From: a virus
Virus genome (UHGV): UHGV-0056970
Length of the DNA stretch: 14,706 bases
Strand: one strand, 5' to 3'
Within the stretch, counting starts at the first letter, position 1; every line of letters begins with the position of its first letter. This document shows, one piece after another, positions 5,196-5,755 of the stretch. A program made the translations under genes and the position numbers. A model generated the notes under the pieces. That model was not told the origin of the DNA and ran no database searches. It was given only the letters and a program-made list of their open reading frames with translations.

Positions 5196-5299
5196 CTTTT
5201 AGTGTCTAATCTGCCAAGAAATTTAGCACTACGGTCATGCGGTCATTACTCATGTTTTTACCCTCGTTATGGCGGCTGCCACCGCCTAACTTTCTCCAT

Positions 5300-5412
5300 A
5301 CACAACAGGGAAGAGCACCAGCTGAGAGCCTGAAGGAGAGAGGGGCCACGCTTTGAACCCGGATCCGGGCAGGGTTAGTTCCCGGCACCGGTGGTGCTCT
5401 TCCCTGTTGTGT
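5300..5412. repeat. Long perfect inverted repeat (21-bp arms, 71-nt spacer) inside a GC-rich non-coding patch; candidate structured RNA or MITE-like element
   Basis: 5300..5320 ACACAACAGGGAAGAGCACCA is the exact reverse complement of 5392..5412 TGGTGCTCTTCCCTGTTGTGT. The spacer holds further palindromes (CCCGGATCCGGG, CCCGG-N7-CCGGG). The six-frame ORFs here overlap on both strands and are Arg/Pro/Cys-rich, typical of non-coding GC-rich DNA. Confidence 0.5.
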
Positions 5413-5755
5413 CCCGGACTCTTCCCGGGCGTCACACCTTTTCGCCGCGCTGGTGGGGCGCACGTCGTGCCTGAAACACTTAGCTTGCACATTCCGGTTG
5501 TTCTGAGAGCGCATGGATCAAGGGAACTCTCAGGCCGCTAACGCTGCATGTGCCATACAACGGTGTGAATGTTGCCGTTCACAACTGGAAGCGCACTCCT
5601 TCAGTTACAAACCAGTCCCCACGACGGATGAAGATGGAATGCGCTTTCATGTTGTGTGCCTGCTTTTACCCACATCAGGCGAGGTGGATCCTGGTTATTC
5701 CCCAACAACAAGGATTCGGGTAATCTGGATATCCCCAACAACGAAAGGAGTTTTT

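Follow-up and report, generated by a model that had tools for sequence, protein, structure and literature searches.

What is a GC-rich, non-coding patch with a long perfect inverted repeat doing in the left part of a prophage? The question is raised by a stretch of 14,706 nucleotides (nt) from the virus genome UHGV-0056970, referred to here as the window, which is the left part of a Klebsiella-type lambdoid prophage. A first-pass annotation, made from the letters alone, had placed a structured patch at 5286–5520, between two AT-rich genes, and offered three identities for it, namely a structured small RNA (sRNA), a long regulatory leader or a repeat resembling a miniature inverted-repeat transposable element (MITE). 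The answer reached here is that the inverted repeat is the closing stem of a hairpin cassette (M1) in an RNA read from the minus strand. The right arm of this cassette abuts, with zero spacer, a conserved RNA of 158 nt, called the core below, which is absent from Rfam 15 and, on comparative sequence evidence, is a well-supported candidate RNA family. The strand, the 158-nt RNA adjoining the right arm and the large family of hairpins to which M1 belongs had all been missing from the first-pass annotation. Coordinates of all features are collected in Table 1.

As first annotated, the repeat is perfect over 21 of 21 base pairs (bp) with a 71-nt spacer, and a repeat search recovered the same arms, 5300–5320 (ACACAACAGGGAAGAGCACCA) and 5392–5412 (TGGTGCTCTTCCCTGTTGTGT), which are 100% complementary. 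This is far beyond chance, as the longest perfect inverted repeat in simulated sequences (2 × 60 first-order Markov sequences of 3 kb, with the composition of the patch or of the window and a spacer of at most 150 nt) was 12 to 14 nt, with a mean of 9. The folding energy of a 136-nt stretch is −67.8 kcal/mol (z = −5.0) for the minus strand and −65.1 kcal/mol (z = −4.4) for the plus strand, and none of 200 shuffles folded as well. The nested GC palindromes described at first pass are also present (CCCGGATCCGGG, together with the hairpin cccggactcttcccggg at 5413–5429). The limits and setting of the patch must be redrawn: it is indeed structured, non-coding and GC-rich, with a GC fraction of up to 0.59 at 5251–5550 against 0.31 in the left-hand gene, but the true island is larger, at about 5254–5658, and only the left neighbour is AT-rich, the right neighbours having 44–49% GC. 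No terminator-like site, i.e., a GC hairpin followed by a U tract, was found on either strand at 5286–5520, and the RNA after the stem reads AUGGAGAAAG. BLAST matches end at 5322 and restart at 5395, which are the two arms, so the patch is a mosaic. On one side, 5213–5322 matches the starts of yfdP genes and their upstream regions on the minus strand; on the other, conservation runs from 5395 to about 5660, in DNA of Klebsiella, E. coli and Salmonella phages that carries no annotation.

The core lies in this second part. Its helices and pseudoknots were derived by hand from 36 sequences that are pairwise less than 90% identical. In this alignment 95.1% of the cells pair and 15 pairs show compensatory changes, while sliding the partners as a control left 28–43% of cells pairing (29–40% on the 36-sequence alignment). 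Read in the minus orientation, the alignment holds 91 cells with G·U and 18 with A·C, which places the core RNA on the minus strand of the window, co-directional with the leftward gene. An RNA from the plus strand had been hinted at by the few G·U pairs in helix P1 and was overturned by this full count. A covariance model of the core, R1, finds a single copy in the window, and across 59 sources it gave 58 matches, with scores of 105–167 bits. Among the 56 distinct sequences in these matches, 97.1% of the cells pair and 16 pairs are compensated. Covariation in homologues, which the first-pass annotation had named as a check, is present. Of the identities offered at first, a structured RNA or a long leader is upheld by the covariation, the G·U statistics and the minus strand, and the MITE is the part that falls.

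The two pseudoknots differ in how far they can be tested. In PK1, one pair switches from C:G to A:U in four sequences. In PK2, GCACAU is predicted to pair with AUGUGC; both strands are invariant, so covariation cannot test this helix. The same segments had earlier been drawn as a nested closing helix, a model now superseded by P5 together with PK2. A kissing interaction between the loops of P6 and P1 was also considered and rejected, as there is no covariation between them and cores of the L019 type alter the P1 loop with the P6 loop unchanged (L-numbers denote loci of relatives). About 45 nucleotides of the core are invariant. Comparison with Rfam, likewise suggested at first pass, gave no known family: Rfam 15 has no match to the window at either the gathering or the E-value threshold, and the best match by E-value, the hairpin ribozyme, scores 14.5 bits against a gathering score of 65. 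In the relatives, Rfam matches only transfer RNA (tRNA) and STnc100, plus sub-threshold RprA. A literature search on the invariant 11–13-mers of the core returned nothing relevant.

The hairpin cassettes form a family of their own. Scanning the RNA-sense strand around cores revealed at least 109 distinct arm pairs that share a conserved ACAAC/GUUGU base and a stem of about 18–20 bp, typically built of 5 bp, one bulged base, 2 bp, a 1 × 1 mismatch and at least 10 bp. Of 109 hairpins, 62 lie immediately 3' of a core. The stems covary to unrelated sequences (for example in L007, L065, L080 and L115), hold 177 G·U pairs and are stabler in their sense than in their antisense arms in 74 cases versus 20. 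This asymmetry shows selection on the RNA and not on the DNA. The basal helix measures 17–20 bp in 77% of the hairpins, whereas whole hairpins span 64 to 160 nt, indicating that the stem is constrained and the interior is free. Together, the conserved base, the fixed register of bulge and mismatch and the narrow stem length argue for recognition by a factor. The length of largely uninterrupted double-stranded RNA found in RNase III substrates (about 20 bp or more) is reached by the 21 perfect bp in the window and, in the family, by 17–20 bp plus flanking pairs.

Within this family M1 is unusual, as uninterrupted stems occur in only four members, M1 included. Homologues of the M1 cassette are found in L152, L153, L154 and L177; each stands a short way upstream of yfdP, with the terminator of an RprA-like sRNA immediately before it. 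All four have an A·C mismatch at arm position 8, so the perfect 21 bp of the window is derived, by way of a single A-to-G change. Two further changes, both in one interior stem, give U·G and G·U wobble pairs when read in the RNA sense. A metagenome scan with the cassette interior gave 30 matches, of which 29 were chance 18-mers and one, L177, was a true homologue. Interiors elsewhere can be quite different. For instance, the cassette at L003 3385–3530 (minus strand; similar in L010 and L082) encloses two perfect hairpins that resemble tRNA T arms, GUCUGG-UUCGAUU-CCAGAC and GUCCG-UUCGAUU-CGGAC. ARAGORN called no tRNA in this L003 interior, and by their sequence the hairpins may be fragments or mimics of tRNA.

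Where the core sits in other genomes bears on what it could do. A two-anchor pattern found it in at least 120 viral contigs, with 112 distinct cores among the matches listed, and in 18 species-representative genomes, all of them Enterobacteriaceae bar one short, oddly labelled contig from a metagenome-assembled genome. In annotated lambdoid relatives the core lies between the gene for the cI/LexA-like repressor and the first leftward gene (rdgC, a gene of the ParB region or an unnamed one). In many viral contigs it begins 5–50 nt past a sigma-70 −35/−10 promoter with operator repeats, after the repressor terminator, and in some a hairpin of the M2 type precedes it. In Uetakevirus (SPN1S, BUCT711) and Lastavirus-like phages the core heads a separate unit inserted between late genes, in the order promoter with a TTACC-N5-GGTAA operator, M2, core, M1, tRNA-Arg(UCU), small open reading frame (ORF) and terminator. 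Of 60 loci, 19 have same-strand tRNA genes close to the core, for the most part downstream of it. Terminator-like hairpins on the sense strand follow the core in 76 of 107 loci, a count that has no valid control. RprA-like sRNAs with strong terminators also separate the core or promoter from the early genes.

Several side observations concern these leader islands. The RprA-like phage sRNAs, with the 3' motif AAUUGCUGUGUGUAGUCUU and a strong terminator, are seen in L008 (2359–2478), L020, L025, L041, L152–L154 and L177; the L008 example scores 50 bits, under the gathering score of 70. In L083 the sRNA STnc100 is matched at 1769–1983 with 47.7 bits (threshold 47), on the strand of the core and some 100 nt further downstream. 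L014 carries two full tandem copies of the core, at 3996–4156 and 4803–4961, on the same strand and about 650 nt apart. Just 3' of the core, the hairpin cassette is replaced in L005, L012, L017, L018, L029, L034, L042 and others by an alternative conserved non-coding module, UCAGCCAUUCACGUUAAGCAUC...GGGACUGGAAGAGUUACCACUUGGAGACGGUCC, for which Rfam has no match.

How might such an island work? Long structured leaders of this kind are met by lambda with its N protein and by HK022 and HK639 with put RNA. No N-type antiterminator was matched among the scanned proteins of the window. A related phage, LLS, has been reported to lack N, and put-like control was suspected in it (PMC12315714). We favour, with a probability of roughly 0.4, a cis-acting leader in which the core is a put-like antiterminator and the hairpin is an RNase III-type stem that processes or stabilises the RNA around a small RNA. 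The island would act in cis on its own transcript, the core folding upon synthesis and then, like HK022 put RNA, making RNA polymerase resist terminators and Rho across the long untranslated structured leader. The ACAAC hairpins, which offer about two helical turns of double-stranded RNA with a conserved base, a bulge and a mismatch, would be substrates for cleavage or binding, RNase III being the likeliest factor. Cutting could separate the leader RNAs from the downstream mRNA, free the small variable RNA of the interior or expose it, and leave stable ends. The conserved arms might also double as crossover points at which cassettes are swapped between phages, in line with the homology breakpoints at the arms. 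A put-like role in cis is favoured because the island is untranslated and structured, because in relatives tRNAs, terminator-bearing sRNAs and terminator-like hairpins stand between the core and the protein genes, and because in many of them the core begins just after an early promoter; the PL operon of the window moreover carries a boxA. A further lead, and only that, comes from core variants other than that of the window, in which P5 reads CGGCG/CGUCG, with G·U as the third pair and CAUG just before it; the same P5-like base forms the base of stem I of HK022 and HK639 putL, part of the interface with the polymerase (PMC9378689).

Several findings weigh against a put-like leader. R1 gave no significant match, with filters at default or off, to the HK022 putL/putR region or to the annotated HK639 putL, which speaks against membership of the put family. 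In this window the core lies about 1.4 kb from the early-left promoter (PL) and has no local promoter, and no sense-strand terminator was found within 2.5 kb downstream of it. In L032, L046 and L057 the core follows tRNA genes (tRNA-Met) and is not at a promoter. A boxA, GCUCUUUAACAA, is carried by the PL transcript of the window before it crosses an inverted moron, and boxA also stands beside the core in L016, L039 and L096, so the core may be a redundant anti-Rho element. L152 and L153 have the cassette and the terminator without the core. Finally, the perfect stem of the window lacks the bulge and mismatch of its family.

Known systems offer partial likenesses. The put RNAs suppress terminators in cis via the zinc-binding domain of the beta' subunit of RNA polymerase. 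Those of HK022 and HK639 are structured RNAs at the start of the PL transcript, in sense orientation, in lambdoid phages without N, a placement that the core shares in many relatives, and HK639 also has a single copy in the left operon. However, put is about 70 nt long with two stems, in contrast to the 158 nt, six helices and two pseudoknots of the core, and the core, unlike put, is also found in non-lambdoid phages and inside tRNA arrays, and lies far from PL in the window. A resemblance between put stem II (CAGGAUGAA) and a cassette arm (CAGGUAAGAGC) was judged coincidental, an apical loop being compared with a strand of a stem. The hairpins recall the RNase III stems of the T7 early region, the lambda N leader, sib and the rrn leader–trailer, which similarly present about two turns of double-stranded RNA with a small bulge or mismatch, lie between polycistronic units and can enclose a structured RNA (the 16S stem). 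Yet an ACAAC/GUUGU base is not a known RNase III determinant and the stem in the window has no internal loop. By position the island is most like put, and by anatomy its hairpins are most like RNase III stems, but by the tests made here it is a member of neither family.

Other comparisons are more distant. The c4 RNAs of P1 and P7 and the CI immunity RNA of P4 are small structured RNAs from an early-operon leader, partly processed by RNase P, and here tRNA genes neighbour the core. Rfam includes a c4 family, but gave no match, and complementary target boxes were not found. In the case of boxA, nut and rrn control, a true boxA is present on the same transcript. UGCUCUUU occurs in the 3' arm of the commonest cassette type, and this arm was considered as a boxA or boxC; as these letters are base-paired and other members have unrelated, covarying sequences in their stead, the hairpin arm is not a boxA. 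A retron msr-msd was rejected because the 314-amino-acid neighbour has no reverse transcriptase domain and none was found in the other scanned ORFs. A tRNA, a transfer-messenger RNA or a Y-RNA-like element was also set aside, with ARAGORN negative in the window and in L001–L003 and Rfam negative for the window.

Beyond a put-like leader, a bolder form of the same idea can be entertained tentatively, although we consider it doubtful: the core could be an antiterminator of a new, put-like class that modifies the polymerase, or else some other RNA that is catalytic or binds a protein, and would license the transcription of untranslated RNA islands in temperate phages of Enterobacteriaceae. The ACAAC hairpins could be modular cassettes whose conserved processing stems present swappable small RNAs such as decoys, tRNA-like pieces or anti-Shine–Dalgarno loops, exchanged between phages through recombination at the arms. 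A trans-acting role can also be imagined and strikes us as rather unlikely. Here the core, with or without the cassette interiors, would be a stable small RNA cut from the early leader that base-pairs with phage or host mRNAs or binds a protein; it would resemble the immunity RNAs P1 c4 and P4 CI or PreS, an sRNA of the lambda early-left region, and the flanking hairpins and tRNAs would be only processing sites and protective ends. Either M2 and M1 hairpins or tRNA genes, the latter being RNase P sites, do flank the core; RprA-like sRNAs share its island, interiors are diverse and in some cases expose loops such as CCUCUCUCCUUCA or T-arm-like hairpins, and the roughly 45 invariant nucleotides would fit a specific partner. 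Small RNAs are moreover documented in the early-left operon of lambda (10.1101/2024.10.31.621285). However, no target with conserved complementarity emerged, covariation between the P6 and P1 loops is lacking, and a 158-nt double pseudoknot is atypical of base-pairing sRNAs. The start of the core at +5 to +15 of its transcript is what would be expected of a co-transcriptional cis element.

Decidedly unlikely, in our view, is a hairpin that acts without specific recognition, as a passive stabiliser or insulator (in the manner of repetitive extragenic palindromic, or REP, elements) or as a recombination boundary at the DNA level, its perfect 21 bp being a recent repair or conversion. The coincidence of homology breakpoints with the arms, the one A-to-G change that closes the A·C mismatch of the relatives and the wholly different stem sequences in L007, L080 and L115 would all suit this explanation, but the conservation of the ACAAC/GUUGU base, of the bulge and mismatch register and of stem length argues for recognition by a factor, and the G·U asymmetry for selection on the RNA. 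Small ribozymes are known beside phage tRNAs, and a self-cleaving or otherwise catalytic core that processes a tRNA or small-RNA array would agree with the compact pseudoknotted fold, the many invariant positions and the association with tRNA genes. This is highly improbable, given that none of the ribozyme classes in Rfam matches, that the sequence offers no obvious candidate for a cleavage site and that most loci lack a tRNA. Weakest of all, and scarcely credible, is a MITE, a repeat derived from an insertion sequence or an integron attC-like site: the 21-bp terminal inverted repeats, the length of 113 bp and ends (...CAAC / GTTG...) that faintly recall attC R''/R' boxes are outweighed by flanks (CCAT and CCCG) without a target-site duplication, interiors that differ between copies where those of a MITE are homogeneous, two different hairpins in one window, strand-specific G·U pairing, ACACAAC and GTTGTGT each one position off the attC consensus (RYYYAAC, GTTRRRY) and the lack of any transposase or IntI in the window, and the MITE reading is refuted by copy number and context, the BLASTN search for multiple copies having found matches in 30 of 5426 E. 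coli genomes, at a single place in each and without exception in a prophage, and the hairpins being confined to phage early leaders.

Table 1 Features of the window, in order of position
Feature	Position	Strand	Remarks
Methyltransferase and ATPase	99–2824		
Integrase	2877–4043		
Excisionase	4004–4222		
AT-rich cargo gene	4251–5195	minus	314 amino acids; phrog_12528; 31% GC; next gene downstream of the island, same strand
yfdP-like remnant	5206–5253	minus	15 codons (MSNDRMTVV... then stop), cut off by the AT-rich cargo gene
Small leader hairpin	5271–5286	minus	GGCGGUGGCAGCCGCC; read from sequence; between M1 and the yfdP ribosome-binding site; conserved in relatives
M1, ACAAC hairpin cassette	5300–5412	minus	21-bp closing stem; 71-nt interior with two small hairpins and pyrimidine-rich loop CCUCUCUCCUUCA
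Core RNA, 158 nt	5409–5566	minus	Model R1, 130 bits; six helices and two pseudoknots
Core helix P1	5413–5429		
Core pseudoknot PK1	5452–5455/5435–5438		
Core helix P2	5444–5446/5482–5484		
Core helix P3	5447–5461		
Core pseudoknot PK2	5548–5553/5487–5492		Predicted pairing
Core helix P7	5495–5498/5534–5537		
Core helix P6	5503–5533		
Core helix P5	5542–5562		
M2, hairpin of the ACAAC family	5580–5658	minus	ACAACAUGAAAGCGCA...UGCGCUUCCAGUUGU; immediately 5' of the core on the RNA
Inverted moron	5757–6321	plus	27-amino-acid ORF and 157-amino-acid ORF (phrog_6315); between the early-left promoter and the RNA island
Hairpin plus boxA	6410–6447	minus	Hairpin 6424–6447, then canonical boxA CGCUCUUUAACAAU at 6410–6423; on the leftward transcript
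Moron terminator	6423–6444	plus	
77-amino-acid gene	6626–6859	minus	
Early-left promoter PL (probable)	6963–6992	minus	TTGACG-18-TATTAT; overlapping operator ACAGATAAAACTGT
S24-type cI repressor	7106–7738		Followed by cro and a cII-like gene

The prophage around the island is most closely related to Klebsiella phage Kp4866-6 (96% identity over 68% of 9.5 kb). Its leftward operon runs from PL at about 6992 through the 77-amino-acid gene, boxA, the antisense of the moron, M2, the core, M1, the yfdP remnant and the cargo gene to xis and int. The operator at PL recurs at the right operator (OR, 7812–7825). The PL-proximal leader, GAACAGGCAGGACGCCCACGAAGUAGCCGCCCGGGGCAUAUGAAGACCGGGAUGAUUC (6890–6948, minus strand), has an almost identical counterpart immediately upstream of the core in L040 and, judged by that similarity, may be another conserved leader element. 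The hairpin before boxA is the reverse of the plus-strand moron terminator. This hairpin-plus-boxA unit recurs in L016, L039 and L096, where it adjoins the core on the 3' side, and in L143, where it lies upstream of the core, and its arrangement suggests Nus-factor antitermination across the inverted moron. Of the two ORFs of the moron, the shorter (5757–5839, plus strand) encodes the proline-rich MQCNDYEERHMPPYKRPEPPPKPDDSD, has a strong Shine–Dalgarno sequence and precedes the longer; no promoter was detected for the pair. On the other side of the island, 4251–5253 resembles a replacement of the usual yfdP–yfdQ early genes by cargo. Beyond the integrase, the methyltransferase matches PD-Lambda-5_B (E = 2e-123) and the adjacent ATPase, of 577 amino acids, resembles ATPases of the AriA, PtuA and GajA type, which by sequence is probably a PD-lambda-5-like defence pair.

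The control of early operons in lambdoid phages without N is an acknowledged gap, for which the paper on LLS offers only the guess of "a put RNA" (PMC12315714). Early-leader RNA elements of phages are a known category, and the odds lean against the island being a new functional class. Even so, a conserved promoter-proximal RNA with strong covariation in phages of Klebsiella, Citrobacter, Enterobacter, Salmonella and E. coli provides a concrete and testable object for the study of N-less control, and gives the known structured RNAs a well-supported further candidate family. The hairpin cassettes hint that phages of clinically important hosts carry a repertoire of small RNAs that has stayed hidden, and offer a mechanism by which modules may be exchanged at conserved stems.
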